From NCBI RefSeq assembly GCF_015207395.1, contig NZ_JADEWX010000057.1:7235-31234 (forward strand): a DNA stretch of 24,000 nucleotides, read 5' to 3'. The position numbers and the translations under genes are program-made. Source of the DNA: Nodosilinea sp. LEGE 07088. Lineage in GTDB: Bacteria; Cyanobacteriota; Cyanobacteriia; Phormidesmidales; Phormidesmidaceae. The stretch's first letter is position 1; every line of letters starts with the position of its first letter. Positions 5,908 through 21,557 of this stretch are shown here, piece after piece. The notes under the pieces were generated by a model that was not told the origin of the DNA, ran no database searches, and was given only the letters and a program-made list of their open reading frames with translations.

Positions 5908-6987
5908 TTAGCTCTGAATTGTCGGGGCCAGATAGGCAACCGGAGTAGCTGGGCCGTTGGCTAAATCGAGGGGAAAGTTATGGGCATTGCGTTCATGCAT
6001 GACCTCAAAGCCCAGATTGGCTCGGTTGATCACGTCAGCCCAGCTGGGCAGCACTCGACCCTGGGAATCTAAAATCGAGTGGTTAAAGTTAAATCCATTT
6101 AGGTTAAAGGCCATGGTGCTAATGCCCAGGGCAACAAACCAAATACAGACTACGGGCCAGGCCGCCAGAAAAAAGTGCAGCCAGCGAGAGTTGTTGAAGC
6201 TAGCGTACTGAAAAATTAGGCGGCCAAAGTAGCCGTGAGCCGCAACAATATTGTAGGTTTCTTCCTCTTGGCCGAACTTGTAGCCGGAGTTTTGAGATTC
6301 ATTGTCGGTGGTTTCTCGAATCAGGCTTGAGGTCACTAAAGACCCATGCATGGCAGAAAACAGAGAACCTCCCAGAACTCCTGCGACCCCCAGCATGTGA
6401 AAGGGATGCATCAAGATATTGTGCTCCGCCTGAAACACAAACATAAAGTTGAACGTGCCGCTAATCCCCATGGGCAATCCATCGGAAAAGCTACCCTGAC
6501 CGATGGGGTAAATCAAAAATACCGAGGTGGTAGCCGCAACGGGGGCACTGTAGGCCACGCAAATCCAGGGGCGCATGCCCAGGCGGTAGCTCAGTTCCCA
6601 CTCTCGGCCCAGATAGCAGAGCAGGGCTGGAATGTAGTGGAAGGCAATCATTTGATAGGGGCCACCGTTGTAGAGCCATTCATCTAGGGTGGCGGCCTCC
6701 CAGATCGGGTAAAAGTGCAGCCCAATGGCGTTAGATGACGGCACCACAGCAGCGGTAATAATGTTGTTGCCGTACAGCAGTGAACCCGACAGGGGCTCGC
6801 GAATGCCGTCGATGTCTACCGGAGGAGCAGCAATAAAGGCGGTGACAAAAACCACCGTTGAAACGCCTAGTAAAGGAATCATCAGCACGCCAAACCAGCC
6901 AATATAAAGCCGATTTTCAATGCTAGTGATCCACTGGCAGAACTGCTCCCAGGTACTGTTGTCCTGGCGTTGGAGAGTTGTAGTCAT
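5908..6987 (-). CDS. psbA3: Photosystem II D1 protein, far-red (FaRLiP) paralog
   Basis: Full-length D1 (MTTTLQRQ...). It retains the Mn4Ca ligand positions: FSDGLPMG (D170), [12 protein letters not shown] (E189/H190) and [15 protein letters not shown] (H332/E333/H337/D342/A344), plus a C-terminal extension. It is embedded in the FaRLiP array. Confidence 0.93.
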
Positions 6988-7018: not shown

Positions 7019-7050
7019 ATTGAAGCAAAAGAATATGAAGAACCTGGGAA
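7019..7050 (-). promoter_or_regulatory. Candidate psbA3 promoter: TTCCC-N6-TTCAT, 10-nt spacer, then TTCAAT (gene-sense)
   Basis: The plus strand reads ATTGAA(7019-7024)-N10-ATGAAGAACCTGGGAA(7035-7050). It shares the 11-mer AGGTTCTTCAT with the chlF and apcD5 elements in the same gene-relative orientation. It lies between the hairpin at 7073-7101 and the psbA3 ATG (6987). Confidence 0.45.
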
Positions 7051-7072
7051 AATTCGCCGGTCAGATACAAAT

Positions 7073-7101
7073 GTAGGGGCTTTGCAGTGCAAAGCCCCTA
7101 C
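7073..7101 (-). terminator. Perfect GC-rich palindrome (hairpin) between the 48-codon ORF and psbA3
   Basis: GTAGGGGCTTTGCA-G-TGCAAAGCCCCTAC, a 14-bp stem. A partial third arm, TGCAAAGCCCCTA, follows at 7111-7123. Confidence 0.5.
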
Positions 7102-7130
7102 AACCGGCACTGCAAAGCCCCTATGGTGTT

Positions 7131-7277
7131 CTAGCTGCGATCGCTGGGGTAGGTTCTATACCCGTACCAAATAAAGGCAATGCAGCCCAGGGCAAATACC
7201 AGCAGGCTCAGAAAAATGCCGCTGGCGGTGGCAGAGATTTGGCCTTCACCGTAGGCGAGATAAAAGAGTGGCAGCAT
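7131..7277 (-). CDS. Unlisted 48-aa single-TM protein, a candidate small PSII-associated subunit
   Basis: Hand translation gives MLPLFYLAYGEGQISATASGIFLSLLVFALGCIAFIWYGYRTYPSDRS, with stop TAG at 7131-7133. GAGG lies 6-9 nt upstream of the ATG (7275-7277). It is on the same strand, 60 nt after psbH2 and before psbA3. It is below the ORF-track length cut-off. Confidence 0.5.
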   Translation of the reverse strand: MLPLFYLAYGEGQISATASGIFLSLLVFALGCIAFIWYGYRTYPSDRS

Positions 7278-7337
7278 AGGATTACCTCATTAGATTTTTG
7301 GGTACGCTATTTGCCCGCAGAATTTGCATACAGATGC

Positions 7338-7556
7338 CTAAAATCCTGAAGGCTGATAGGTGTTCGCCCCATCGAGCACAATGGTGCCGTTGTAAAGCTG
7401 CAAAATAATCAGCAGAAACAAAAACAGCATGGCGATCATAAAAACCATAAATGGAGTGGTGCCCCAGCCTGGGGCAACCCGTCCAGCTTCAGCGTTAAAC
7501 CGCCGGAGAAAATACTGGATTGGGGCTACTTTTTTAGGAACAAATTTTTGTTGCAT
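7338..7556 (-). CDS. psbH2: Photosystem II reaction centre protein H, far-red paralog
   Basis: The PsbH core motif VAPGWGTTPFMVFMIAMLFLFLLIILQLYN matches the canonical GWGTTP...FLLIILQIYN. Its position after psbB2 is typical of FaRLiP clusters. Confidence 0.88.
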   Translation of the reverse strand: MQQKFVPKKVAPIQYFLRRFNAEAGRVAPGWGTTPFMVFMIAMLFLFLLIILQLYNGTIVLDGANTYQPSGF

Positions 7557-7605
7557 GGCTCAGGTTTGGTTGGGGGTCAGTCGTCAAAAAGAGTATCCCC
7601 GATTC

Positions 7606-7633
7606 GTAGGGGCATAGCATGCTATGCCCCTAC
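7606..7633 (-). terminator. Perfect 28-nt palindrome between psbB2 and psbH2
   Basis: GTAGGGGCATAGCA|TGCTATGCCCCTAC. It has the same outer arms (GTAGGGGC...GCCCCTAC) as the hairpin at 7073-7101. Confidence 0.5.
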
Positions 7634-7730
7634 GGGGTTCCTAATCGTGAATTGGGGTTTCCACAATCGGATTTCGTATGACTCAGTTGAGAACCTCTAC
7701 AGGTGATCTGATATCAGGCATGACGCAGGC

Positions 7731-9266
7731 TCAAATGGTGGTTTGAGTTTGACGTGTGGTCGTATCGCCCACCTTTTGGAAGTAGCCCCATTCCACCTGC
7801 TCAATGTCTAGATCGGGGTCAACGCCCGAGAATACATCCTGGAAGATGGCGCGGAGGCCGTGCCAGATGTGACCAAAGAACCAGACCAGTGCAAAGCAGG
7901 CGTGGAAGAAGGCGAAGAAGCCCCGGTTGCTGGTTCTAAAGGCCCCGTCAGAGTTGTAAACCTCACGGTCAAAATCGAAGGGCTCTCCTAGCTGGGCCTT
8001 ACGGGCATACTGCTTAACCTGGGTGGGGTCGCTAAAGGTTTTGCCGTTGAGCAGCCCGCCCAAAAAGCTGACGGTAACGCCGGTTTGCTCGAAGCTGTAT
8101 TTAGAGTCCATGCGGCGGAAGGGAATGTCGGCTCGGATCAGGCCGTCTCTGTCGGTCAGCAGCACCGGGAAGTTCTCGAAGAAGTTGGGGATGCGACGCA
8201 CCGTTAGATCTCGACCTTCTTGATCTTTGAAGACGGGGTGGCCCAGCCAGCCGGTGGGTAAACCGTCGCCATCGACCATGCGTCCCACCCGGAACAGGCC
8301 GCCCTTGGCAGGGCTATTGCCGACGTAGTCGTAAAAGGCGAGCTTTTCGGGAATGGCGGCCCAGGCTTCGGGTAGGCTCTTACCAGCTCTTACCCCGGAC
8401 TGCACGCGGCGATCAATTTCTTTTTGAAAGTAAGCCTGATCCCACTGGTAGCGGGTTGGCCCCCACAGCTCGATCGGGGTGGTGGCGGTACCGTACCACA
8501 TGGTGCCAGTGGCAATGAACCCGGCGCAGAAAAAGACCGCCAGGCTACTGGCCAGCACCGATTCTATGTTGCCCATGCGCAGGCCCCGGAATAGATTTTC
8601 GGGGGGGCGCACGAAAATATGAAACAGGCCGCCGATAATGACGACGATGCCGAGGGCAATGTGGTGGGCCACGACGCCACCAGGGTTTTGGGGGTCAAAG
8701 CCCGCTGGGCCCCAGTCTGGGGCCACCCCCTGGACGTGGCCGGTGAGGCCAAAGGGGTCTGAAACCCACATGCCGGGGCCAAAGATGCCGGTCAGGTGGA
8801 AGGCCCCAAAGCCAAAGCAGAGCAGCCCGGCCAGCAAAAGATGAATACCAAAAACCTTGGGTAAATCGATCACGGGCTCGTCGGTCTTGGGGTCGAAGAA
8901 GGTGGCGACATCCCAATACACCCAGTGCCAGCAGGCGGCTAAAAACTCTAGGCCTGCGAAGACAATATGGGCGGCGGCGACCATCTCAAAGGTCCAAAAC
9001 CCGGGGTCGGCAAAGGTGTCGCCGGTAATGCTCCAGCCCTGCCAGGAGTTGGTTACCCCCAAGCGGGCGACAAAGGGCATCAGAAAGCAGCCCTGCCGCC
9101 ACATGGGGTTGAGCACCGGGTTGGTGGGGTCGTAGCGAGCGAGCTCAAACAACAGCATTGAGCCGGCAAACCCGGCACAGAGGGCGTTGTGCATGAGGTG
9201 TACCGCTATAAGCCGCCCTGGGTCGTTGATGACCGAGGTGTGAACGCGATACCAGGGAAGTCCCAT
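7731..9266 (-). CDS. psbB2: Photosystem II CP47 chlorophyll apoprotein, far-red paralog
   Basis: [10 protein letters not shown]... start and full-length CP47 (511 aa) with the large lumenal loop. Cluster context. Confidence 0.93.
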
Positions 9267-9429
9267 GGCGTTGTTCTCCTTGTTAATAGACAGAAGGCAG
9301 AAGAGGCGGAGGCGGAAGATAGGCTTGTAGCGTGGGTCAGGCTCCCTAGAGATCAGGCGATCGCCCCAGAGAGAAAAAGCGGGTAAACCTACGAGGACAG
9401 CCAGCCAGATTCACCCGCGATCGCTATAC

Positions 9430-10893
9430 CTATCGTTCGCTGGGGTCGATGGGCGGCATGGAGAGCACCGGCTCGTTTTTGCGATCGATGCCGACAATGA
9501 ACCCCGCCGCCGTCGCCCGCGCCAGCCCGGCGTGCCACCAGTGCCCCACTAAGAAGAAGAAGGCGAAGATAAAGTGGGCCGAGGCCAGCCAGGTGCGCGG
9601 CGAAACGTAGTTAAACGCGTTGGTTTCCGTCGCCAGACCGGCCACCGAGTTGATCGAGCCCAGGGGGGCGTGGGTCATGTATTCTGAGGCGCGGCGCACC
9701 TGCCAGGGCTGGACGTCGTTTCTGAGTTTATTTAGGTCTAGGCCGTTGGTGCCGCGCAGGGGTTCTAGCCAGGGAGCCTTGGCATCCCAAAAGCGCATGG
9801 TTTCGCCGCCAAAGATAATTTCTCCACTGGGCGATCGCTGTAGATACTTACCCAACCCGGTCGGCCCCTGGGCCGACGCGATGTCGGCCCCCAAGCCCTG
9901 GTCGCGCACCAAAAACACCAGCGACTGCGCCTGGGATGCCTCGGGAATCGTCGGGCCGTAGAACTCGCTGGGGTAAACCGTATTGTTAAACCAGATGAAC
10001 GCCGTGGCGATAAAGGCCTGCCCGGCAATGTTGCCCAGGCTCTGGGCCAGATAGGTTTCCCCACTCCAGGGGTAGAGGTTGTGGGTCCAGCGCAGGGGCG
10101 GTACCAAAATGTGCCAAATGCCGCCGATCACCAGCAGCGAGCCGATCCAAATGTGGCCGCCGATCACGTCTTCTAAATTGTCGACGCCGATAATCCAGCC
10201 GCTGCCGCCGTAGGGGCTATGAAACAGGTAGCCAAAAATAATCCGGGGGTCGAGGGTGGGGTTGGTGATCAGCCGCACGTCGCCGCCGCCCGGAGCCCAG
10301 GGGTCGTACAGGCCGCCCCAGAACATGGCTTTGCAGACAAACAGCAGGGCAAAAATGCCCAGAACACCGATGTGGAAGCCCAAAATTTGGGCCACCTTGG
10401 CGCGATCGCCCCAGTCAAAGTCAAAATAGCCCGAGAGCTTTTCTGGCCCGCGCAGGGCGTGGTAGAGGCCGCCAAAGCCCAAAATCGCCGAGCCAATCAG
10501 GTGAATGACCCCGATGGCAAAGAACGGGAAAATGTCGATGATTTCGCCGCCGTGGCCGACGCCAAAGCCCAGGGTGGCAATGTGGGGCATGAGAATGCAG
10601 CCCTGCTCGTACATGGGCTGGGCCGGGTTGTAGTGGCTCACCTCAAACAGCAGCATGCCCCCGGCCCAAAAGGCCAGTAGGGCCGCGTGGGCGATGTGGG
10701 CACCCAAAAAACGGCCAGTTAGATCGGTGGTGATCAGTCGAGCATTGCCTGCCCACCAGGCGTAGCCGCTGGATTCCTCGTCGTAGCCAGCTTTATTGGA
10801 GGTATTGCGATCCCCTTCGTTAACGAAGGGGGTGAGGGTGTTGAGCGAAATGTTGTCTAGTGAAGATGCGATCGGTTCTATGGGGGTTTCCAC
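9430..10893 (-). CDS. psbC2: Photosystem II CP43 chlorophyll apoprotein, far-red paralog (probable GTG start at 10893)
   Basis: [11 protein letters not shown]...[22 protein letters not shown] is the CP43 N-terminal signature. AAGGAG lies 11 nt upstream of the in-frame GTG at 10891-10893. The longer ORF to 10977 would begin inside a perfect palindrome. Confidence 0.88.
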
Positions 10894-10945
10894 AGGGGTT
10901 AAATCTCCTTGAAAACAGTCAATCTTGAAAAGAAACTGATGAGCT

Positions 10946-10979
10946 GGGTGAGGGGCGCACCGCGGTGCGCCCCTCACCC
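10946..10979 (-). other. Perfect 34-nt GC-rich palindrome in the psbD3-psbC2 junction
   Basis: GGGTGAGGGGCGCACCG|CGGTGCGCCCCTCACCC. It starts 1 nt after the psbD3 stop codon (10981-10983). Confidence 0.6.
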
Positions 10980-10980
10980 C

Positions 10981-12039
10981 CTATTCACCAACGCCGCGAG
11001 GCAGCACCTCTTCGGGGAAGACAAACTTTTTGGCGGGTTGGTCAAGCTCGCTCATCCAGGCCCGCACCCCTTCGTTGAGCAATATATTTTTGGTGTAGAA
11101 GGTCTCAAACTCAGGGTCTTGGGCCGCCCGAATTTCCTGGCTAACAAAGTCGTAGGCCCGCAGGTTAAAGGCCAGGCCAATCATGCCGATGGCGCTCATC
11201 CACAGGCCTGTGACCGGCACAAATAGCATGAAGAAATGCAGCCAGCGCTTGTTTGAAAACGCGATGCCAAAGATCTGCGACCAGAATCGATTGGCGGTCA
11301 CCATGGAATAGGTTTCCTCGGCCTGGGTGGTCGAAAATCCTTTAAAGGTGTTTTTGCCAGTGGAGTCTCTATACAGCGTGTTTTGTACCGTCGCCCCGTG
11401 AATGGCGCAGAGCAGAGCCGCCCCCAGCACCCCGGTCACCCCCATCATGTGAAAGGGGTTGAGGGTGTAGTTGTGAAATCCCTGGAAAAATAAGAGAAAT
11501 CGAAAGATAGCGGCGACGCCGAAGCCGGGGCCAAAAAACCAGCTCGACTGCCCCAGGGGATACATCAAAAAGGTGGCCACAAAGACCGCAATCGGGGCAG
11601 AAAAGGCGATCGCATTGTAGGGCCTGAGACCCACCAGCCGCGCCACTTCAATTTGCCGCAGCATAAAGCCCATTAGTCCCAGCACGCCGTGAAACGCAAT
11701 GAAATTCCACAGTCCGCCGATCTGGCACCAGCGGGTAAAGTCGCCGCCGGCCTCTGGCCCCCACAAAAACAGCAGGGAATGCCCCATGCTTTCCGCCGGG
11801 GTGGACACCGCCACGGTTAAAAAGTTGCAGCCCTCTAAATAGGAGCTGACCAGGCCGTGGGTGTACCAGGAGGTCACAAAGGAGGTGCCGGTAAACCAGG
11901 CCCCAATGGCAAGATAAGAACAGGGAAATAGCAGCAGCCCCGACCAGCCAATAAACACAAAGCGATCGCGCTTGAGCCAGTCGTCAAGGGTGCCAAGCCA
12001 GCCCTGGGCCGACTTGAGACTGCCCATGGTAGTTGTCAT
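10981..12039 (-). CDS. psbD3: Photosystem II D2 protein, far-red paralog
   Basis: [23 protein letters not shown] signature, 352 aa, and a C-terminus FPEEVLPRG. It lies directly upstream of psbC2. Confidence 0.93.
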
Positions 12040-12107
12040 AACGTAGTCCTCTGGGTTCAGAATGATGGTTTGAAAGCTAGATATAGGAATAGGCGAGTAC
12101 CTAGTAC

Positions 12108-12205
12108 TGAAAGGCAGAAGGCAGAGGCAGAGGACGCATCCCAGATATCACAAGGGTTTCCGCGTTAGTAAATAGGTGAGTTATTGCCGCCTCAGAATGC
12201 CTGGC
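12108..12205 (+). repeat. Dispersed repeat copy 1: short GGCAGAR array plus a conserved ~55-nt tail
   Basis: TGAAAGGCAGAAGGCAGAGGCAGAGG, then AGGGTTTCCGCGTTAGTAAATAGGTGAGTTATTGCCGCC. It aligns with 18787-18946 at roughly 70% identity over the tail by eye. Confidence 0.6.
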
Positions 12206-12239
12206 CGATATAGGTTGCCGTGCTGTAGAAAGCTGTGGT

Positions 12240-12773
12240 TTACACCACCGGAATACTCTCGCCAACGCCGTCGTTGATGAAGTACGGCGGGCCGGGTAGA
12301 GCGATGTACTGAATGATTTGATCGAAGTACGGAATCACCTCCTCGGCGGTGGCGGCGTCAAGCTGTTTAATCGCCTCGGCCTTGAGACAGCGCATGTATT
12401 GCAGAATGTTGGTCAGGGGAATGCCGACGTTGGCATAGAGATCTTTCATGCCGGTGAGGCCAATCTCTTGCAGGGGCCGGTCGTTGCCTGCCAGCAGGCA
12501 GTAGCTGATCAGGCGAATGTACCAGCCCACGTCGCGTTTGGCCGATGCCGTTTTGATCCGGTTGCCAGAGTTGCTGGGGGTTCTGGGGCAAATTTTCCAG
12601 AACTGCCGGGTGCCCTTTTCCACAATGGTGGGGGCCTTGGCCTCGAGTTGTTTGACGAGCTGAATGCGCTCTGCCCCAGACTGGCAAAAGGTTTGAATCA
12701 TGCGCAGTTCCCCAGGGGTGGGGTAGCGCAGCTCTTCGTCGGCGTTGAGAATAACTTGCTTGATTAAACTCAT
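12240..12773 (-). CDS. apcD3: Far-red allophycocyanin alpha-type paralog lacking the canonical Cys81 and carrying a C-terminal extension
   Basis: Globin-like phycobiliprotein alpha fold (MSLIKQVILNADEELRYPTPGEL...). The site aligned to ApcA ATCLRDLDYY reads TASAKRDVGWY (Cys to Ala). There are about 17 extra C-terminal residues (LPGPPYFINDGVGESIPVV). The paralog number is assigned from gene order as I recall it from published FaRLiP clusters. Confidence 0.8.
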   Translation of the reverse strand: MSLIKQVILNADEELRYPTPGELRMIQTFCQSGAERIQLVKQLEAKAPTIVEKGTRQFWKICPRTPSNSGNRIKTASAKRDVGWYIRLISYCLLAGNDRPLQEIGLTGMKDLYANVGIPLTNILQYMRCLKAEAIKQLDAATAEEVIPYFDQIIQYIALPGPPYFINDGVGESIPVV

Positions 12774-12995
12774 GGATTTATGCAGAAAGTAAACAGGTGA
12801 AATCGTTGGCGTTTATATTCAGTTCCAATCCAGCGGGCTGAGCTTAGATTCTGTAAACCTGAATGCCGCCAAACCAGCCAATGGCAATGCGATAGCTGAA
12901 GATAGCCCGCAGCTTTTTGCGCCAGTGAAAGATAGCTGCCAATGGGTTTGGCCAAAGATTCAGGGGCCGGTTAGCCGCAGAGAGGTGGGTTCGGG

Positions 12996-15383
12996 TCATG
13001 GTGAATTGGCCTCCGAGGGCTGGGCCGCTGTCGCCATCGGCTCGGGCTTTGCTGCCGGAGGCGAGGACGGATGCCCGTTGTGGGCTGCAGCCTCCGGGGC
13101 GAGGTTGGGTACTGGCGATGGTGCCATTGACGCTGGCTCCGCCTGGCGATCCAGCACCGCTACGGCAGAAGCACTCTGGGCGGTACTCTGGGCAGCACTC
13201 TGGGCGGCACTCTGGGCGGCACTCTGGGCAGTACTCTGGGCGGCCATCCACTCGCCAGCGATGGCGGGGTTGTGGCGGGGCTTGCCCCAGGCGGTGGGGC
13301 CCTGGGGCGATCGCAGGGCATAGCCCCGGGGGGTCAGGTAGCGATCGTAGGGCACCGTTTCATCCCCAAATACCTGGGCGTATTCAGGGCTGTCGATGAT
13401 GGCATCGACCAGGGCATAAAAGCCCGCTTTACCGGCGATGTCGTAGTAGCGGTTGAGCTCTGCGCGGCCATAGGTGGGGCGGCCCAGCAGGCGGCGGTGA
13501 ATGCATTCAATTGACTTAGTGATGTACAGGTTTTCCCAATACATCTGTCGAAAGGCACGGGAGTAGGCGAGCTGGCGGACAAAGTCTCGCAGGGTAATCT
13601 CGCCGCCCTTGAGTTTGGTTTCGGCCACATCCTGCCGCTGGCTGTCGAACACCTCGCGGCCAAACACCTGACGGTAGGCTCCGAGAATGACAGCATCCAT
13701 AGAGTGATGGGCAAGATTCACGTTGGGGCCCTGGGGATGGCTACCCCGCTCGGGCTGGTGGGAGGGCTCCAGCTTAAACACCGACTGGCCAAACAGCCCC
13801 GGCACTCGGCCCAGGTGGGCTGAGGCATTGGGCTCAACGTGCCCATTGTGTCGCCGACCATTCTGCAGCCCGCTGCTGATTAAAATGCGGCGGCTAGTCG
13901 AGCTAAAGTGGGCCGGTTGGGCACTGGGGTGGCGGGTTTCGTCGGGGAAGATCGCCCCAAACTGAATCTCTAAGGGGTCGTTGCCCACGCCGTAGGGGTG
14001 CTGATCGGGCAGCGGTTTTTGGGCGCGGGCAAAGGTGGTGACAAACTGAGGTACCTTGCGGGCCGGGGCGCTGTACTTAAATAGGTCAAGCTGCGGCCCC
14101 CAGTTGCGGCATTCCTGCGCCTCTATCCCTAGACCCCTGAGGTAGGGTACGGTCTCTTCGCCAAAGTAGTCGGCGTACTCCTGGGAGTCGACCAGGGCAT
14201 CGACCAGGGCGGGCAGGCCCCCCTCGGAGATCACGTCGAAGTAGGTCTGAAATTCTTCTAGGCAGCTCAGCCCGCGACCCAAGAAATGCCGATGGGCCAG
14301 CTCAATCACCCGGCTAATCGTAAACGGCTCGTAGAACTCGCGCCGGTAGAGCCGCGATTTGCCCAGGTGCCGCACAAACTCTTTCATGGAATACAAGCCG
14401 CTTCTGAGCTTTGACTCCAGATCGCTCGCGGCCAAGCCGTAGGCCTGGGTTACATCGCGCTCAAGCACCTGGCGGTAGGCGGCGCGAATGGCCTCCTGAA
14501 GTTCGGTCTCCGACAGCCCTGGTTTAACGACTAGCTTGGGCGTCGGCAGCGCGCTCTGGTAATAGCTCTGGGGCAGGGGCTGCCCAGGGTGGAGTTTCGA
14601 CACGCCAATGCGCAGCCGATCGTCGGGCTTTTCCACCAGGTAGTCGGTGATCAGTACCTCAAAGTAGCGCTTGACCAGGGCGGCGGCATTGCTATCGGGC
14701 AGCAGGCACTGACCCGCCTTCCACTGCATTTCTCGCAGGGCGACGACGGTGGCCAGCGTCACATCTTCGGGAATGACGCCCCGCAACCCCCGAGTGTTGA
14801 CGGTGATAATGCTGGTGTCGCCCGCCACCATGGCGTAGGTGACGTAGCGCAAAAACCAGGCCAGATCGCGCATCGAGCGCTTCATCCGCGCCGTGCCGTA
14901 CTTGGCAATGCTGATGGTGCGAAATCGACTGGGAACGCTGGGCCGACCCTGGGCAAAGAGTGACGCGATCTGATCCACCAGGGTATTGGTAGAGTCGATT
15001 GACTGAGGCTCTTTGAACTGGGTTATTGAGGTGCCCTTGCCACGTCGGTGGCGGACGTTAGCCGACAAATAGTCTTCGCCGATGTAATATCTTGAACCGG
15101 GCATGCCGATGGGGTCGGTGGGCCGTTCGAGATAAGCCATCGGCGAACCGCCGGTAAAAATACGGTTGGCCCCTGCGGCCACAATTTTGTCGGCGTTTTG
15201 CGTCAGCGCGGCAGCGATTTCCAGGCGCTTTTGCCCCGACTCAAAAAAGGCCGAGAGGGTTTTGAGCTCGCTGGATTTTGGGTAGCGATCGCGCTGTTCG
15301 GCCTCGGCAATTACGGCCGTGGGCACGGTATGAAATGCTTGCGGGTGAGTAACTGGGCTGCCCCCGTTGGTCCGATTAGTCAT
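12996..15383 (-). CDS. apcE2: Far-red phycobilisome core-membrane linker with two REP domains (start at ATG 15383)
   Basis: The N-terminus MTNRTNGGSPVTHPQAFHTVP aligns with the canonical ApcE start. It has a phycobiliprotein-like domain with a loop insertion and two linker REP domains (YRQVLERD...VDSQEYADYFGEETVPY and YRQVFGRE...IDSPEYAQVFGDETVPY). The upstream TTG at 15416 is less likely. Confidence 0.9.
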   Translation of the reverse strand: MTNRTNGGSPVTHPQAFHTVPTAVIAEAEQRDRYPKSSELKTLSAFFESGQKRLEIAAALTQNADKIVAAGANRIFTGGSPMAYLERPTDPIGMPGSRYYIGEDYLSANVRHRRGKGTSITQFKEPQSIDSTNTLVDQIASLFAQGRPSVPSRFRTISIAKYGTARMKRSMRDLAWFLRYVTYAMVAGDTSIITVNTRGLRGVIPEDVTLATVVALREMQWKAGQCLLPDSNAAALVKRYFEVLITDYLVEKPDDRLRIGVSKLHPGQPLPQSYYQSALPTPKLVVKPGLSETELQEAIRAAYRQVLERDVTQAYGLAASDLESKLRSGLYSMKEFVRHLGKSRLYRREFYEPFTISRVIELAHRHFLGRGLSCLEEFQTYFDVISEGGLPALVDALVDSQEYADYFGEETVPYLRGLGIEAQECRNWGPQLDLFKYSAPARKVPQFVTTFARAQKPLPDQHPYGVGNDPLEIQFGAIFPDETRHPSAQPAHFSSTSRRILISSGLQNGRRHNGHVEPNASAHLGRVPGLFGQSVFKLEPSHQPERGSHPQGPNVNLAHHSMDAVILGAYRQVFGREVFDSQRQDVAETKLKGGEITLRDFVRQLAYSRAFRQMYWENLYITKSIECIHRRLLGRPTYGRAELNRYYDIAGKAGFYALVDAIIDSPEYAQVFGDETVPYDRYLTPRGYALRSPQGPTAWGKPRHNPAIAGEWMAAQSTAQSAAQSAAQSAAQSTAQSASAVAVLDRQAEPASMAPSPVPNLAPEAAAHNGHPSSPPAAKPEPMATAAQPSEANSP
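13173..13244 (-). repeat. Six tandem 12-nt units (ACTCTGGGCRGY on the plus strand) encoding (AQSA/T)n in the apcE2 tail
   Basis: Counted directly: units at 13173, 13185, 13197, 13209, 13221 and 13233. They translate as AAQSTAQSAAQSAAQSAAQSTAQSA. Confidence 0.9.
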
Positions 15384-15445
15384 GGTGGGTATGGCTCGCT
15401 TGGGTTGGTTGGGCAATACGGCTGGCGAATATGGCTATCGCTGAT

Positions 15446-15925
15446 CTAGGGCGTCATGCCCTGAATCAGGTAGTCAAAGTAAGGCCCCACTTCGGCCCTG
15501 TCTTCAAGGGTGAGCAGATCCAGGGCGGCGTCTTTGAGGCAGCGCATGCACTCGACGACGTTTCTAAGCGGAATTTCTAGCGACCTGTACATTTCCTTAG
15601 CGCCCTTCAGACCGCTGGTCTGGATCGGGTCAATATCGCCAACCACAATGGCGTAGGTAATCAGCCGCACGTACCAGCCCTGATCGCGCAGGCAGGAAGC
15701 CCGAAAAGTAGGGTTGCCGCTGTTGCTGGGGGTAATCTGACAGCGCTGCCAAAACGCTTCGCTGCCTTTCTCGACAATTTTTTCGATGTTGGCTGTCAAA
15801 ATTGAGGCAATCCGCAGACGCTGATCGCCGTCTTCAAAAAAGCTGCGCAGGGCATTGAGTTCGCCCTGGCTCAGATAACGAGCCTCGCGATCGGCATTGG
15901 CGATCGCTTGAGTAATGATGCTCAT
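15446..15925 (-). CDS. apcD2: Far-red allophycocyanin alpha-type paralog
   Basis: MSIITQAIANADREARYLSQGEL. The bilin Cys is retained (RASCLRDQGWYVRL). 159 aa. The paralog number is assigned from gene order. Confidence 0.85.
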   Translation of the reverse strand: MSIITQAIANADREARYLSQGELNALRSFFEDGDQRLRIASILTANIEKIVEKGSEAFWQRCQITPSNSGNPTFRASCLRDQGWYVRLITYAIVVGDIDPIQTSGLKGAKEMYRSLEIPLRNVVECMRCLKDAALDLLTLEDRAEVGPYFDYLIQGMTP

Positions 15926-15960
15926 GGTTTGATCACGATAGTTACATCAAGGGCAACAAA

Positions 15961-16075
15961 GGAGTATCGACTTAAAGCGGGATAAATCTCTGAGGCAGCC
16001 GTCAGAAGTCAGGAGCCAAGAATCGAGAGCTAGGAGCGCGCAGCTTTCTGCCCTCTGCCTTCTGTCTTCTGTCTT
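15961..16075 (+). repeat. Dispersed intergenic repeat copy A (AAAGCGGG...CAGCCGTCAGAAG...) followed by an inverted heptamer-like tract
   Basis: 15961-16040 aligns with the reverse complement of 17590-17672. 16046-16075 (TTCTGCCCTCTGCCTTCTGTCTTCTGTCTT) is the complement orientation of the GGCAGAA-type repeat. Confidence 0.6.
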
Positions 16076-16088
16076 AGTTGAGGGTGAT

Positions 16089-16119
16089 GCGGGTGTCCAA
16101 CCGTCAAATCGACACCCGC
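16089..16119 (-). other. Intercistronic stem-loop between apcB2 and apcD2
   Basis: GCGGGTGTC (16089-16097) pairs with GACACCCGC (16111-16119), a 9-bp stem with a 13-nt loop. Confidence 0.4.
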
Positions 16120-16169
16120 CATCTCCCCTTAACGCGTTCCGGGAGAGCAGAACGCATAGATGACACGCG

Positions 16170-16655
16170 CTAGCTCAGCCCCGTGCAAATGTGGTCAAAG
16201 TAGAGCCCCATTTCTTTGCCGGCGTCTGCGCCGAGCATTTCGGTGGTGACCTCTTTCATGGCCTGCACCGCCCGCACCGTCGCCCCCACCGGCACGCCAA
16301 GGGAGTTATAGGTTTCGCGCAGCCCGTTGAGCACGCGCTCGTCTAAAATCGACGGGTCACCGGCCAGCATGGCGTAGGTGGCATAGCGCAGAAAATAGTC
16401 CATATCGCGCACGCAGGCGGCGTACCGACGACAGGTGTACATGTTGCCGCCGGGGGCGGTGATATCGGTATAGAGCAGCGATTTGGCGGTGGTGCGGGTG
16501 ACGATGGTAGACGCATTAGCGCTGATGGTCATGGCGGCTCGGGCCCGCAGTTCGCCGCTGCGAAAGTAGTCTTGCAGGTTGTTGAGTGACGACTCATCCA
16601 GATATTTGCCCTGGGTATCGGAGGTGTTAATCAGGGTCGTAATAGCGTCTTGCAT
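16170..16655 (-). CDS. apcB2: Far-red allophycocyanin beta paralog
   Basis: [20 protein letters not shown]... is a beta-type N-terminus. Cys82 context is [13 protein letters not shown]. 161 aa. Confidence 0.9.
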
Positions 16656-16877
16656 GGGTTAATTCCTGCGATGTAATAGTTGTTAAACAAATCGATTGAT
16701 TGCTCAGTAAAGAGCCCCAACTCAACAATGCTGTGATGTGGTGACATTGGCGCAGCTATGGCTGTAGGGCTATTAGCCCAACGGGCCACTGCGGTTAGTT
16801 GAGATGCGTTACGCGGGGCGTTGGCGCACCCTACACTCAATGCCATTTCCCCTCAGGAGGGGGTGGGGCTCAAGCTT

Positions 16878-17354
16878 TTAGGACAACGAGTGAATAATCA
16901 AATCAAAGTAAGGGGCGACTTCAGCGCCATCTTCTTCACTCATTAGAGACATGGCTTCCTCTTTGAGGCAGCGCATACACTCGGCAATATTCCGAATCGG
17001 AATTTCCAGGTTGTTGTACATTTCTTTAATGCCAACGGTGCCAATTTCTTCGAGGGGTCGCTCACTACCTGCCAAAATTGAATAGGCAATTAGTCGTACA
17101 TACCAGCCTTGATCGCGCTGACAGGAGGCTGTTTTACGCTCGTTGCCGCAGTTGCTGGGGGTGTTAGGACAGCGTTCCCAAAATCTGGCGCTGCCGTTTT
17201 GAACGATTCGCTGCTCGTTTTCGGCTAGGATTTTGGCGATGCGAATGCGCTGCTCTCCGGTTTTTACGAAATCTTGGTAGATGCGTATTTCCTTAGGAGC
17301 CGGATAACGAGCCTCACTATCTGCACTCAAGATTAGTTCTGTCACCAAACTCAT
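16878..17354 (-). CDS. apcD5: Far-red allophycocyanin alpha-type paralog, first gene of the minus-strand array
   Basis: MSLVTELILSADSEARYPAPKEI. The bilin Cys is retained (TASCQRDQGWYVRL). 158 aa. The paralog number is assigned from gene order. Confidence 0.85.
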   Translation of the reverse strand: MSLVTELILSADSEARYPAPKEIRIYQDFVKTGEQRIRIAKILAENEQRIVQNGSARFWERCPNTPSNCGNERKTASCQRDQGWYVRLIAYSILAGSERPLEEIGTVGIKEMYNNLEIPIRNIAECMRCLKEEAMSLMSEEDGAEVAPYFDLIIHSLS

Positions 17355-17428
17355 AATCTATTATCTCCAAGCGGGTTGACGAAGTGTTTGAAACTGTTGA
17401 ATAAATCTTCCGATCAAGGGTTGGTAGG

Positions 17429-17482
17429 AGAATAAGCGATAAAAATGAAGAACCTATGAAGCATGAATTTTGCTTCAAGAAA
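17429..17482 (-). promoter_or_regulatory. Candidate apcD5-operon promoter: TTCAT-N6-TTCAT, 10-nt spacer, then TATTCT (gene-sense), plus conserved upstream flank
   Basis: The plus strand reads AGAATA(17429-17434)-N10-ATGAAGAACCTATGAA(17445-17460). 17441-17460 is a 20/20 reverse-complement match to 20251-20270 upstream of chlF, in the same orientation and at similar distance from the start codon. Confidence 0.55.
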
Positions 17483-17577
17483 CTATATGCCTCGAGGATT
17501 TGACGGACGCAGCAGGAAGTCCAGGCAGATAGTCCGGGTATCAACATGATCTAGGGCAAGTCTGGGTGTGGGGATTT

Positions 17578-17672
17578 AGAAGCCAGGAGCCAGCAGGCCG
17601 CGCTCTCCTAACTCCTACTCCTGGCTTCTGACGGCTATCTAATAAATTTGCCCCGCTTTAAACCGATACCTT
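17578..17672 (+). repeat. Dispersed intergenic repeat copy B, inverted relative to copy A, with an internal 12-bp stem
   Basis: AGAAGCCAGGAG (17578-17589) pairs with CTCCTGGCTTCT (17618-17629). The segment CTTCTGACGGCTATCTAATAAATTTGCCCCGCTTTAAACCGATACC matches the reverse complement of 15961-16010. Confidence 0.6.
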
Positions 17673-17779: not shown

Positions 17780-17816
17780 CGGTCTTATATTTGATTGGGT
17801 CTTCCTACTTAGCGTC

Positions 17817-17848
17817 TTCCCAGGAATTTCAGAGTTTAGTGCTTCAAT
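17817..17848 (+). promoter_or_regulatory. Candidate psbO promoter: TTCCC-N6-TTCAG, 10-nt spacer, then TTCAAT
   Basis: TTCCCAGGAATTTCAG(17817-17832)-N10-TTCAAT(17843-17848). An ungapped 38-nt alignment to the psbA3 upstream element gives about 26 matches by hand. It lies about 100 nt upstream of the psbO ATG. Confidence 0.4.
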
Positions 17849-17940
17849 CAATGATTGTCCTGGGTGTGGCCTAGGCGGCAGCGTCCTTCTCTGTTGTCCA
17901 GAAAGCCGCAGTAAACCCTATGCCAAAGAGGTCAATTTTT

Positions 17941-18783
17941 ATGCGCTATCGCACCTTGGTTGCTGTAGTTTTAGCCCTTTGCCTGGGGCTGATTACAGCG
18001 TGCAGCGGCAGCCCCCGAGCGGGAGATCAAGCTTTGAGCTATGACCAAATTAAAGGAAGCGGGTTGGCTAACCTATGCCCGCAAATTTCTGAAACCCGGC
18101 GAGATGCGATCGCCATTGCTCCTAATCAGTCCTACACCCTAGAGGAGATGTGTTTACAGCCCACCGCCTTCTTGGTTAAGCAGGAGCCGTTGGTCAAGCG
18201 CGCCAGCGCCAGCCAGGCCACCCAGTTTATGCCCACCAAGCCGCTGACCCGAGCTAGTTTTTCCATTGACCAGGTCAGTGGAGTATTAAAAGCCGATGCC
18301 GACGGTCGCCTGACCTTTATGGAACAAAGCGGCTTCGACTTTCAGCCGATTACGGTGCAACTCCCCGATGGCGAGCGCGTGCCGCTGCTCTTTTCTATCA
18401 AGGGGCTGGTGGCGCAAACGCTGGAAGCGGCCAAGAGCATCAACCCCTTAACCCAGTTCAGCGGCACCTTTCAGGTACCGGCCTACCGCACCGCAGGCTT
18501 TTTAGACCCCAAAGGGCGTGGGGTTATGGTGGGCTACGATGCCGCCGTAGGCTTACCCCCCCAGGCCGATAGTAAAGAGTTTCAGCGCTCGAATACAAAA
18601 GTCTTTGAGGTTGACGAAGGCACGTTGACCCTGCGGGTAGAGCGGGTAGACCAGGGTACCGGAGAAATCGCGGGGGTGTTTGAAAGCATTCAGCCCTCGG
18701 ATACCGACTTTGGCGCTAAAGATCCCATGGATGTCAAAATCCAGGGTGTTTTCTACGCCCGACTGAACTCAGAAATGGCCTAG
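17941..18783 (+). CDS. psbO: Photosystem II manganese-stabilising protein PsbO, cluster-encoded paralog with a lipobox-like signal peptide
   Basis: LSYDQIKGSGLANLCP...MCLQPTAFLVKQEP, DFQPITVQLPDGERVPLLFSIKGLVA, YRTAGFLDPKGRG and VKIQGVFYARL all match PsbO. The start is taken at ATG 17941 (AGAGG 9 nt upstream). The signal sequence ends LGLITAC. Confidence 0.88.
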   Translation: MRYRTLVAVVLALCLGLITACSGSPRAGDQALSYDQIKGSGLANLCPQISETRRDAIAIAPNQSYTLEEMCLQPTAFLVKQEPLVKRASASQATQFMPTKPLTRASFSIDQVSGVLKADADGRLTFMEQSGFDFQPITVQLPDGERVPLLFSIKGLVAQTLEAAKSINPLTQFSGTFQVPAYRTAGFLDPKGRGVMVGYDAAVGLPPQADSKEFQRSNTKVFEVDEGTLTLRVERVDQGTGEIAGVFESIQPSDTDFGAKDPMDVKIQGVFYARLNSEMA

Positions 18784-18786
18784 TTT

Positions 18787-18946
18787 TGAAAGGCAGAAGG
18801 CGGAAGGCAGAGGCAGAAGGCAGAAGGCAGAAGGCAGAAGGCAGAAGGCAGAAGGCAGAAGCAGAAGGCAGAACGGGAATTCCAGGTCTGACCAGGGTTT
18901 TCGCGTTAGTCAACCGGTGGGCTACTGCCGCCGTAGAGCACTAGCC
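18787..18946 (+). repeat. About 12 tandem GGCAGAA heptamers (STRR-like) plus a conserved tail: dispersed repeat copy 2
   Basis: 18790-18873 is a near-perfect 7-nt-period array starting 4 nt after the psbO stop. The tail AGGGTTTTCGCGTTAGTCAACCGGTGGGCTACTGCCGCC matches copy 1 at 12155-12195. Confidence 0.85.
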
Positions 18947-19217: not shown

Positions 19218-19246
19218 AAGGTGCTCAGGCATGGCCTGAGCACCTT
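19218..19246. terminator. Terminator hairpin between convergent psbF and psbV, possibly bidirectional
   Basis: AAGGTGCTCAGGC-ATG-GCCTGAGCACCTT, a 13-bp perfect stem. It is flanked by AAAAA on the left, which gives a U-tract for the minus-strand psbV transcript, and by GGTTTAT on the right. Confidence 0.75.
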
Positions 19247-19269: not shown

Positions 19270-19785
19270 TTAGCGTCCAGGCTTGCCGCTGGCCCAGATG
19301 CGACCAATAATATTGGGCTGGGCTAACACATAGCCAGAGATATCCGCTAAATCTTGATCGGTGAGCGTCTTCATTCTGGGGAATAAATCGACCCTGGCCG
19401 TGGAGGGATGAAGTTCTTCCAGTGACCCTAGGCCGTCGTAGGTGGTGGGATTTTTCAAGTAGTCAATAATTCCTTCTAAATTGTCGCGAGCAGGGAGTGC
19501 TAAGGCCAGAGTCTGTGGGGCCAGACTAATATCTGGATTGGGCTTAGTAATGCCGTCTAAATGGCAAGCAGAGCAGGTGCCGTTAAATTTCTTGCGACCG
19601 TTGGCAAGCTGTTGTTCGGTCAAGGTGATGACATCACCCGATGCGTTGAGCGGCACCGTGCGGGCCGACTCGCTGATTTCAATAGCGAGGGCGGCTTTAG
19701 TGGGTATTTGAAAAGCTATAACTATAGCTAGGCCAACTATCAGGAGGATTCTTCCTGGCATAAATTTTTCAAAAAATTGAGCCAT
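19270..19785 (-). CDS. psbV: Cytochrome c-550 (PsbV) paralog
   Basis: Signal peptide, heme motif CSACH, DNLEGIIDYLKNPTTYDG and ELHPS (distal His) match PsbV. AAGGA lies 7 nt upstream of the ATG at 19785. Confidence 0.85.
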   Translation of the reverse strand: MAQFFEKFMPGRILLIVGLAIVIAFQIPTKAALAIEISESARTVPLNASGDVITLTEQQLANGRKKFNGTCSACHLDGITKPNPDISLAPQTLALALPARDNLEGIIDYLKNPTTYDGLGSLEELHPSTARVDLFPRMKTLTDQDLADISGYVLAQPNIIGRIWASGKPGR

Positions 19786-19932
19786 TAAATTATCCTTAAA
19801 AGCGCTTCAGTAGGTTTGAAGCTACCATATTTCTATGTTTTTTATTCTGATTAAGTAGACTTAAAAAATATTTCTTTAGATGAAAATAAAGATTAATAAA
19901 ACCCTTGAATTCATCCATAATTTAGCGAAAGA

Positions 19933-19964
19933 TTCCCAAGAAATTCATCTTTTTGTGCTCTGTT
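19933..19964 (+). promoter_or_regulatory. Fifth copy of the half-site pair (TTCCC-N6-TTCAT) in the AT-rich psbV/chlF divergent region
   Basis: TTCCCAAGAAATTCAT (19933-19948) is followed by CTTTTTGTGC, then TCTGTT at the 10-nt offset, which is a weak -10. It lies about 400 nt upstream of the chlF ATG and about 150 nt upstream of psbV on the opposite strand. Confidence 0.3.
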
Positions 19965-20237
19965 CTGGAAGCGATCGCGCCAGCAGATTGGCGGGTACAT
20001 CCCATTTCTGTAAGTGTCTGCCTGATGGCCACAGGGGCAGGGATCCACGGTGCAGAGACTCGTTGGCTTAGGCAAACCCATCTCTATGTCTCCCCTATCT
20101 CTACCTCTCCTAGAAGGGAATGTTTACCCCGTTCTTTCACAGCTTGTCCTGAGCTAAATTTGGGGTGGAGGAAGTCCTTCATTTGCTTGGGCCAGAGAAC
20201 TTTCAACCCCTTAAATGGGCGTGTAACGTTCCTTAAA

Positions 20238-20282
20238 GCAGATTTTCACATTCATAGGTTCTTCATTTTTCTCTTCTAGGTT
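20238..20282 (+). promoter_or_regulatory. Candidate chlF promoter: TTCAT-N6-TTCAT, 10-nt spacer, then TAGGTT
   Basis: TTCATAGGTTCTTCAT(20251-20266)-N10-TAGGTT(20277-20282). 20251-20270 is identical to the reverse complement of 17441-17460. The flanking GCAGATTTTCACA resembles the apcD5 flank GCAAAATTCATGC. Confidence 0.55.
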
Positions 20283-20351: not shown

Positions 20352-21557
20352 ATGACCACACAGCTTGGTAGAACGGTTGCCATCAATCGTTCTAGCCAAC
20401 TTGAAGCCGCAGAGATAACTCGCCGCACACCGGCTGGTTTAGGGCGCAGACAAATTAACCCTTGGGAGCGCTTTTGTCGGTGGGTAACGAGTACTGAAAA
20501 CCGCATTTATGTTGGCTGGTTTGGGGTGCTTATGATACCCACGATGGCTACGGCTGCCACCGTGTTTGTTCTGGCCTTTATCGCCGCTCCAGCGGTAGAT
20601 ATGGATGGCACTGGGCGAGCCATTTCGGGCGCCCTGCTTGACGGTAATAACCTGATTAGTGGGGCCGTGGTGCCGACATCGGCGGCCATTGGGCTACATT
20701 TTTACCCCATTTGGGAGGCCGCCTCTTTGCAGGAATGGCTGACCAACGGTGGCCCCTATCAGCTGATCGTGCTGCACTTTGTGATTGGCATCATCAGCTA
20801 TCAAGATCGGGAGTGGGAGCTGAGCTATCGCCTGGGCATGCGCCCCTGGATTTCGCTGGCGTTTACGGCTCCGGTGGCGGCAGCGGTGTCGGTGCTGCTG
20901 ATTTATCCGGTGGGCCAGGGGAGTTTTTCTTCGGGTATGCCCCTGGGAATTTCCGGCACCTTCACCTTCATGCTGCAATTTCAGGCCGACCACAACATTC
21001 TGGCCAGCCCATTTCACCAGCTTGGGGTAATTGGCGTATTTGGCGGGTCGTTGCTCTGTGCGGCCCATGGTTCTCTGGTGACCTCGGCAGTTATTCGCCC
21101 GGGCGTTGGCGAAGCCTCTCGGGAGCATCGCCCCTTGGGGTGGAAGAAACCCGCCTGGGCCGTGAGACCCGGTCAAACCTATAGCTTTGACTATGCCCAA
21201 GCCCACCAGGAGAAGCTGCTCTGGCGAGGCATGAAATTTAAAGATTCGCGATCGCTGCACTTTTTCCTGGCCGCCTTTCCGGTTGCGGGGATTTGGTCGG
21301 CAGCGTTGGGAGTGGATATGGCCGCCTTTGGGTTTGATCGATTTTCGGTGGGCGGTGCCATGGAGAGCTATGCCCAAAAGACCGTGGTGCCCACCTGGGC
21401 CGACCTCGTAACCCAGGCCAACCAGGGCATTAAGGCCATTGAAGAGACAGACACCATGTCGGTTCCAATTTTGCTGAGTGCCGCCGCCGATCGCGCAGCA
21501 GCCGCTGCCGACGATGGGGGTCTGCTATTGCAGCAAGTCAGTGACCCCTTGGGCTAG
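20352..21557 (+). CDS. chlF: Chlorophyll f synthase (super-rogue D1, PsbA4/ChlF)
   Basis: D1 fold, but the Mn ligands are lost: FSSGMPLG replaces FSDGMPLG, QADHNIL replaces QAEHNIL, and no [14 protein letters not shown]-terminus is present. It has [10 protein letters not shown] (the QD motif) where D1 has GREWELSY. Start taken at ATG 20352 (MTTQLGR, GAGGA 7 nt upstream). Confidence 0.88.

Follow-up and report, generated by a model that had tools for sequence, protein, structure and literature searches.

Far-red light photoacclimation (FaRLiP), which enables oxygenic photosynthesis at 700-800 nm, is of interest for both crop and cyanobacterial engineering. A class of T-rich intergenic FaRLiP motifs, comprising chlF, long and short types, was described in a preprint (Antonaru et al., bioRxiv 10.1101/2024.05.15.594131). 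In these motifs, a variable gap separates a 3' region of strong conservation from a less conserved 5' region; they precede chlF, apc, psa, psbA3, psbO and rfpD, but were absent before internal genes and rfpABC, and had no match in motif databases (bioRxiv 10.1101/2024.05.15.594131). Motifs of the long type are located within about 440 bp upstream of the head gene of an expected operon, and those of apc genes are specific to Nodosilineales-type clusters (bioRxiv 10.1101/2024.05.15.594131). The same authors proposed co-transcription of the apc genes with psb genes (psbH2 and psbH2' among them) and a promoter of its own for psbA3, and they detected multi-gene mRNAs in the metatranscriptomes of three FaRLiP groups (bioRxiv 10.1101/2024.05.15.594131). 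Here, we describe a motif of this kind upstream of apcD5 in a window of 24,000 nucleotides, the whole stretch of DNA that was analysed (contig NZ_JADEWX010000057.1 of Nodosilinea sp. LEGE 07088, positions 7,235 to 31,234). The window is a FaRLiP gene cluster of a Nodosilinea-type cyanobacterium, and its closest relatives by ApcD5 are Nodosilinea genomes and metagenome-assembled genomes with 96-99% identity; an identical ApcD5 was not present in the protein collection that was searched. The element probably represents the regulatory core of a far-red-light-activated promoter that heads a minus-strand array running from apcD5 to a 48-codon open reading frame (ORF).

The apcD5 element shares with the long type of the preprint its intergenic position before a head gene, a chlF-like T-rich 3' region, a weaker 5' region and a Nodosilinea-type host. 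The distribution of the motif in the present scans reproduces the one described in the preprint, down to the motif that precedes the gene of an RfpD-like receiver protein in Nostocales. Both the motif class and the one-operon idea are already known from that 2024 preprint, and the present finding is an independent rediscovery. The terms direct repeat, sigma, winged, OmpR, TATA and transcription start do not occur in the main text of the preprint, implying that the 3' region was apparently not dissected into 11-nt repeats and a -10 element. A Pho-box-like reading of this region, with two phased units followed by a -10 element, would be a modest refinement.

The transcription activator RfpB has a winged-helix domain between two receiver domains, and the cluster is no longer expressed once rfpB is deleted (PMC4658448). 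As of 2023, the promoter sequences that RfpABC recognises were reported to be still unknown (PMC10127269).

The apcD5 element and its sister copies

The minus strand at 17473..17429 reads GCAAAATTCATGCTTCATAGGTTCTTCATTTTTATCGCTTATTCT. The exact 20-mer TTCATAGGTTCTTCATTTTT occurs twice in the window, at 17441-17460 (minus strand) before apcD5 and at 20251-20270 (plus strand) before chlF, with both copies oriented in the sense of their downstream gene. The initial annotation had reported the apcD5 copy as the second of the two, and the sequence that it quoted is correct. Similarity between the two sites spans 46 nt with 78% identity (17438-17483 versus 20228-20273), and a 23-mer taken out of the element had no match in 100 shuffles. 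The three TTCAT pentamers that had been counted in the apcD5 element are all present on the minus strand (17467..17463, 17460..17456 and 17449..17445), but only two of them, 11 nt apart, are conserved and in phase, while the third is specific to this lineage. TTCAT alone is not enriched across the window (42 observed versus 37 expected), and the signal is a composite element rather than the pentamer. The element comprises the following parts:

17427-17487, minus strand: whole motif, intergenic, covered by the 61-nt matrix.
17472..17486, minus strand: 5' box ATAGTTTCTTGAAGC, 9 nt from unit 1, with moderate conservation in 43 apcD5 copies.
17463..17467, minus strand: most upstream TTCAT, moderately conserved only in apcD5 copies of this lineage.
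17456..17462, minus strand: direct-repeat unit 1, GCTTCAT (consensus TCTTCAT), predicted to cover -40..-34.
17445..17451, minus strand: direct-repeat unit 2, TCTTCAT, 11 nt downstream of unit 1, predicted to cover -29..-23.
17435..17444, minus strand: T-rich spacer TTTTATCGCT, exactly 10 nt.
17429..17434, minus strand: -10-like hexamer TATTCT (TAnnnT).
17421..17422, minus strand: predicted transcription start (A), placed by the position of the -10 hexamer and a small conserved CAA patch in apcD5 copies.

The CTTCAT of unit 1 is nearly invariant in the chlF, apcD5, psbA3, psbO2 and other copies. The length of the 10-nt spacer is fixed in all aligned copies and its T run is conserved, and the T, A and final T of the hexamer are nearly invariant at that distance in every gene group. 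No recognisable -35 hexamer is present in the apcD5 element. The most upstream TTCAT is missing from the consensus of the chlF group. Its distance to the next pentamer is 7 nt in the window and 8 nt in most relatives, which puts it out of phase. The 5' box is the weaker counterpart of the chlF 5' box and is less conserved in the apcD5 group than in the chlF group. The predicted 5' leader of apcD5 is about 68 nt long and unstructured (z = +2.05). A 76-codon ORF that overlaps the motif (17317-17547, minus strand) has no family match and was treated as spurious.

Three further copies of the box were identified in the window:

20222..20282, plus strand: chlF sister copy with the 5' box TGTAACGTTCCTTAAAGC, the repeat units and a -10-like TAGGTT.
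7019..7051, minus strand: short copy before psbA3 with a degenerate unit 1, unit 2 CTTCAT and a -10-like TTCAAT, scoring 17.6 bits.
17815..17848, plus strand: degenerate short copy before psbO2, TCTTCCCAGGAATTTCAG-N10-TTCAAT.

The psbA3 copy, which includes AGGTTCTTCAT at 7045..7035, is located directly downstream of the hairpin after the 48-codon ORF, suggesting that psbA3 is a separate transcription unit. Clearer copies upstream of psbO2 were found in 11 related loci, with scores of 12-28 bits. In all four copies (apcD5, chlF, psbA3 and psbO2), the -10-like hexamer lies exactly 10 nt past the second pentamer. The window therefore provides a natural example of four graded box copies, at chlF, apcD5, psbA3 and psbO2.

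Conservation of the motif at array heads

Among 80 genome loci around ApcD5 homologues, annotated by tblastn with the window proteins, two architectures predominated. In one, seen in Nodosilinea-, Phormidesmis- and related thin filamentous lineages, psbO2 is transcribed away from apcD5, and the latter is the first gene of the array. In the other, apcD5 is positioned behind other genes: behind psbA3 on the same strand in Nostocales, Chroococcidiopsis and others, and behind psb genes in Pleurocapsales. A first position weight matrix, trained on apcD5 copies, was used to scan 2.7 million positions with a threshold of 12 bits. All 138 matches that reached this threshold were intergenic; none fell in annotated coding regions and none occurred in shuffled sequence. 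The presence of the motif was distributed among the genes as follows:

apcD5: 43 of 43 at an array head, 1 of 37 behind a same-strand gene.
chlF: 35 of 35 at an array head, 3 of 5 behind a same-strand gene.
psbA3: 21 of 23 at an array head, 1 of 12 behind a same-strand gene.
psaA2: 2 of 3 at an array head, 1 of 17 behind a same-strand gene.

Not one motif was found in 572 internal spacers from 81 sequences (those before apcB2, apcD2, apcE2, apcD3, psbD3, psbC2, psbB2, psbH2 and the 48-codon ORF), where the best score was 9.2 bits.

Since the first matrix had been trained on apcD5 copies, a second matrix was trained solely on 36 chlF-upstream copies of other genomes. With this chlF-trained matrix, the apcD5 site was the top match of the window (39.8 bits with a 37-nt model and 51.2 bits with a 61-nt model), the chlF copy ranked second and the psbA3 copy third (9.3 bits). 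The remaining window positions scored -2.1 or less, under the best shuffle score of 3.4. Together with the 572 empty spacers, these scores bear out the earlier observation, made by eye, that the internal genes of the array lack a comparable motif. Among the relatives, none of the 43 apcD5 genes at an array head scored below 15.1 bits (median 36.3), while 37 of the 38 non-head apcD5 genes scored -4.3 or less and the motif was present in just one.

That exception is locus L068, in which apcD5 is positioned behind psbA3 yet carries its own motif (about 9830-9870) in a 478-nt gap. In Hydrococcus (L076, 1538-2115), two motif matches precede psbA3 at the head of a 12-gene single-strand run and none occurs inside the run. 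A distinct variant of the motif was found in Nostocales (L054, 2043-2593) before the gene for a 129-residue CheY-like (RfpD-like) protein next to chlF.

Alignment of the copies on their core revealed a conservation island from about -30 to +27 between unconserved flanks. The island consists of the 5' box (strong at chlF, weak at apcD5), a variable gap, TCTTCAT-nAGT-TCTTCAT, the 10-nt T-rich spacer and TAnnnT. The two 7-nt units, spaced at a period of 11 nt (TCTTCAT-nAGT-TCTTCAT), are nearly invariant across all gene groups. The motif tracks array heads and not individual genes, which is the pattern expected of an operon promoter. The element is real and, judged by this conservation, clearly functional.

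A putative Pho-box-like operator for RfpB

Regulators of the OmpR/PhoB family bind tandem direct repeats that are about one helical turn apart, and at Pho boxes they stand in for the -35 element, some 10 bp ahead of the -10. The class II layout of the Escherichia coli Pho box resembles the one predicted for the FaRLiP box: two 7-bp repeats, with a period of 11 bp, take the place of the -35 and stop about 10 bp short of the -10. The repeat itself differs, with TCTTCAT in the FaRLiP box and CTGTCAT in the Pho box, and RfpB differs further by its Hpt domain and by the second receiver domain that the literature assigns to it. Features typical of OmpR/PhoB operators were found on both sides of the presumed interaction, namely tandem repeats with a 10-11 bp period and a Trans_reg_C domain in the presumed regulator. 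The latter was identified in Chlorogloeopsis fritschii PCC 6912, where the ORF at the rfpB position beside the rfpA phytochrome gene (L060:5358-6545, minus strand) encodes Response_reg, Trans_reg_C (PF00486, E = 1.1e-24) and Hpt domains. The repeats stand at a fixed 10 nt from the invariant TAnnnT, which is predicted to serve as the -10. The two TCTTCAT units are read as the putative RfpB operator of an activator-dependent sigma-70-type promoter because their geometry equals the OmpR/PhoB-family layout and RfpB has such a domain.

Another system with a comparable arrangement is complementary chromatic acclimation in Fremyella diplosiphon. Its regulator RcaC has receiver, DNA-binding, Hpt and receiver domains, and the L box to which it binds, TTGTTA-N5-TTGTTA, has an 11-bp period. 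Like FaRLiP, this system combines a light-colour phosphorelay, a large OmpR-class regulator and an 11-bp direct repeat, and the first three domains of RfpB are the same as those of RcaC. Nevertheless, the two systems differ in the repeat sequence, the photoreceptor (the knotless phytochrome RfpA in FaRLiP) and the regulon.

The scheme that we infer, including far-red dependence, binding by RfpB, the start site and a single transcript, would run as follows. The two TCTTCAT units, 11 nt (one helical turn) apart, would cover about -40 to -23 and replace the -35. Most likely, phosphorylated RfpB would bind them head-to-tail as a dimer and, like PhoB at the Pho box, bring in RNA polymerase together with a sigma-70-type factor. 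Transcription would begin near 17422 and extend across ten genes; some of it could be lost at a hairpin after psbC2, and the rest would end at a hairpin after the 48-codon ORF. Each of psbA3, psbO2 and chlF-psaA2 would be served by its own copy of the box. A literature search found no paper that reports binding of RfpB to the repeats; the two phased TCTTCAT units and the -10 hexamer offer a concrete, mutable model for binding and reporter work.

The 5' box was compared with HLR1, the box of the redox/light-intensity regulator RpaB, which consists of tandem (G/T)TTACA(T/A)(T/A) with a 10-nt period and activates when centred at -66 to -45 (PMC6525291). The chlF-type 5' box has the consensus TGTAAC-N4-TGTAAAG; its opposite strand, TTTACAAA-AA-GTTACAAT, matches HLR1 and is centred near -60. 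The HLR1 match averaged 13.4 of 16 in the chlF copies and 12.9 of 16 in the psbA3 copies, and in each case none of 300 column permutations reached this value. An HLR1-like chlF 5' box is present in the window (20222-20239, plus strand), where one good half-site (GTTACA) is kept, as well as in L037, L052, L060, L064, L067 and others. The same reading of the apcD5 5' box was rejected: the window copy scored 10 of 16, no better than its flanks, and the apcD5 group averaged 11.1, a value reached by 18 of 300 permutations. The chlF-type box is inverted relative to HLR1, and an RpaB site at this position is a candidate by sequence; no paper linking RpaB with FaRLiP promoters was found in a literature search. 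A speculative reading, of low probability, is that FaRLiP promoters are two-input modules, with a 3' RfpB operator made of two Pho-box-like TCTTCAT units and a chlF-type inverted HLR1 for RpaB near -60. Were this the case, a single promoter would integrate the colour of the light with its intensity, and the apcD5 copy, with its decayed 5' box, would respond mainly to RfpB.

Extent of the proposed transcription unit and alternative explanations

The proposed transcription unit and two candidate sites for its termination or attenuation are:

7131..17354, minus strand: proposed transcription unit from apcD5 to the 48-codon ORF, ten genes on a single strand in an order conserved in relatives.
9368..9418, minus strand: terminator-like hairpin (9418..9379, -20.9 kcal/mol) with the U-rich tail TTTTTCTCT, right after psbC2.
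7062..7102, minus strand: end hairpin (7102..7072, 14 pairs) and TTTGTATCTG after the 48-codon ORF, the strongest terminator-like structure on the strand.

A single operon is plausible from this arrangement, and one far-red promoter for apcD5 through the 48-codon ORF would fit the sequence. The hairpin after the 48-codon ORF, which precedes the separate short psbA3 motif, is likely to mark the end of the unit. The earlier suggestion of one promoter for the whole array is favoured by the array-head module shared with chlF and by this end hairpin, but the psbC2 hairpin may end part of the transcripts. A hairpin similar to the latter was found in Nodosilinea sp. P-1105 (L005), and it is not general among relatives. 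Stable hairpins also occur in the apcD5-apcB2, psbB2-psbH2 and 48-codon ORF-psbA3 spacers (z = -2.5 to -3.3). No internal hairpin position was general among relatives in a search with discrete hairpin lengths that missed the window's own end hairpin. The idea that intercistronic hairpins modulate stoichiometry was thus over-read: some spacers do contain stable hairpins, but these are not conserved in relatives and such a role is speculative. The near-perfect hairpins at 7605-7634 and 7072-7102 (both minus strand) share the arm GTAGGGGC...GCCCCTAC; the former lies in the psbB2-psbH2 spacer without a U-rich tail, and the latter is the terminator-like one after the 48-codon ORF.

Several observations weigh against a far-red promoter of this kind driving the complete array. 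The psbC2 hairpin may act as an internal attenuator that ends part of the transcripts, which would not yield a uniform 10 kb transcript. A scan with the sigma-70 consensus returned 8 sites versus 8.7 expected, providing no evidence for or against internal promoters, and promoters that lack the motif would be compatible with the sequence. The cognate regulator is not encoded in the window, from which rfpA, rfpB and rfpC are absent. In the sole published reporter test of an apcD5 upstream region from this order, the apcD5 and chlF fragments of Synechococcus sp. PCC 7335 showed no far-red induction in Chlorogloeopsis fritschii PCC 9212, and the apcD5 fragment was leaky in white light in this heterologous host (PMC10127269). 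The authors ascribed the failed induction to a strain-specific RfpB (PMC10127269). Finally, a non-quantitative scan of metagenomes with the 21-nt core CTTCATNRGTTCTTCATNTTT showed that, among the matches listed (at least 120), most were on contigs without a FaRLiP-type gene, many of them from human-gut metagenomes, while FaRLiP contexts accounted for most of the 13 listed matches (12 distinct) in which the -10 part was good as well. The 21-nt core alone is not specific at the size of a metagenome database and arises by chance in unrelated DNA.

It is possible, albeit doubtful, that the apcD5 promoter is genuine while the array comprises more than one operon, with motif-less promoters serving psbD3-psbC2 and/or psbB2-psbH2 and the psbC2 hairpin being a true terminator. 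The U-rich tail of that hairpin would agree with such a division, and the spacers of 160-240 nt leave room for promoters. In Nostocales, the psbC2-psbB2 gap measures roughly 150-850 nt (mostly 350-700). However, the hairpin is not conserved in relatives, and the FaRLiP motif was found before psbB2 in none of 60 loci and before psbD3 in none of 70. In Leptolyngbya JSC-1, a reporter driven by the chlF upstream fragment was far-red-inducible, but those with the apcE2 and psbB2 upstream fragments were not (PMC10127269). Moreover, the gene order is conserved, and in permuted orders the motif stays at the array head, as in Hydrococcus (L076).

The remaining alternatives concern the element itself. 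A factor other than RfpB, such as an RfpABC-dependent alternative sigma factor or a different response regulator present in some clusters (for instance an RfpD-type receiver protein or an RpaB-type factor), might read the box while RfpB acts indirectly, although this is considered unlikely. The sequences recognised by RfpABC were, as mentioned above, called unknown in 2023, RfpD was named as a possible partner (bioRxiv 10.1101/2024.05.15.594131), several sigma-factor genes change their transcript level in far-red light (PMC6424891), and the chlF-type 5' box resembles an inverted HLR1/RpaB site. By contrast, the invariant TAnnnT, predicted at -12..-7, looks like a standard -10 element of the sigma-70 type, 11-nt tandem repeats are typical of binding by winged-helix proteins of the OmpR/PhoB type, a domain that RfpB has, and cluster expression is lost upon deletion of rfpB (PMC4658448). 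The RfpD-like ORF (L054) appears to encode a lone receiver domain, and a motif lies ahead of it as well. It is very unlikely that the conserved sequence is transcribed and acts as an RNA, be it a leader element, a processing site or a small-RNA target, instead of as a DNA operator. The distance from the motif to the apcD5 start codon ranges from 47 to 474 nt among relatives, so long leaders do exist, but the RNA reading was rejected because the element region has no RNA structure signal (z = 0.16) and no Rfam family; the conserved block ends in TAnnnT at the fixed 10 nt, a DNA-level promoter feature, and the sequence past the predicted start is unconserved. That the similarity of the two copies is a functionless by-product of duplication or gene conversion within the cluster is hardly credible. 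The window's two copies do share an unusually long exact stretch of 20 nt, and apc copies have been inferred to arise by duplication of the chlF motif (bioRxiv 10.1101/2024.05.15.594131), but the block is kept between unconserved flanks across cyanobacterial orders, solely at array heads, which points to purifying selection. An RfpB-dependent promoter core thus remains the preferred explanation of the apcD5 element.

Gene content and other features of the window

The minus-strand genes occur in the order apcD5, apcB2, apcD2, apcE2, apcD3, psbD3, psbC2, psbB2, psbH2, the 48-codon ORF and psbA3. The coordinates of the genes that border the box copies, and of their neighbours, are:

16878-17354, minus strand: apcD5, with its start codon at 17354.
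7131-7277, minus strand: 48-codon ORF.
5908-6987, minus strand: psbA3, followed by ftsH and unrelated genes.
17920-18783, plus strand: psbO2 (PsbO paralogue, Pfam MSP), divergent from apcD5.
19270-19785, minus strand: psbV-like cytochrome c550 gene.
About 20352-21557, plus strand: chlF/psbA4.
From 21604, plus strand: psaA2.

The 48-codon ORF is kept 3' of psbH2 in at least 32 of the compared sequences. It has neither a Pfam or NCBIfam match nor BLASTP similarity to PsbH2, and it is probably the gene that the preprint names psbH2'. The psbV-like gene has no FaRLiP box upstream, either in the window or in 32 related loci (best score -0.9 bits). The region upstream of it (19786-19950) is very AT-rich, and the gene is followed by a strong terminator-like hairpin at 19246..19218.

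The Rfam model of IsrR, the isiA antisense RNA, matches the strand opposite psbC2 at 10227-10413 (plus strand) with 113.8 bits. This match most likely reflects psbC/isiA homology, and it provides no evidence of an antisense RNA. A 12-nt unit (GCACTCTGGGCG-like) occurs five times in tandem near the 3' end of apcE2 (13171-13254) and is translated as a short peptide repeat.

Dispersed repeats were also observed in the intergenic regions. A 52-nt inverted repeat with 81% complementarity pairs 15964-16015, in the apcB2-apcD2 spacer, with 17618-17669, between the psbO2 and apcD5 promoters; the latter copy adjoins a local stem, AGAAGCCAGGAG...CTCCTGGCTTCT, at 17579-17630. In a blastn comparison of the related loci, the two dispersed repeats and the GTAGGGGC hairpins had no copies outside the window. 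Heptamer repeats, (GAAGGCA)n, are arranged in tandem just 3' of psbO2 (18790-18873, plus strand), and related copies are present in two spacers of the apc array, at 16043-16075 (complementary) and 12104-12139 (same-sense). These heptamers resemble the short intergenic tandem repeats of cyanobacteria.

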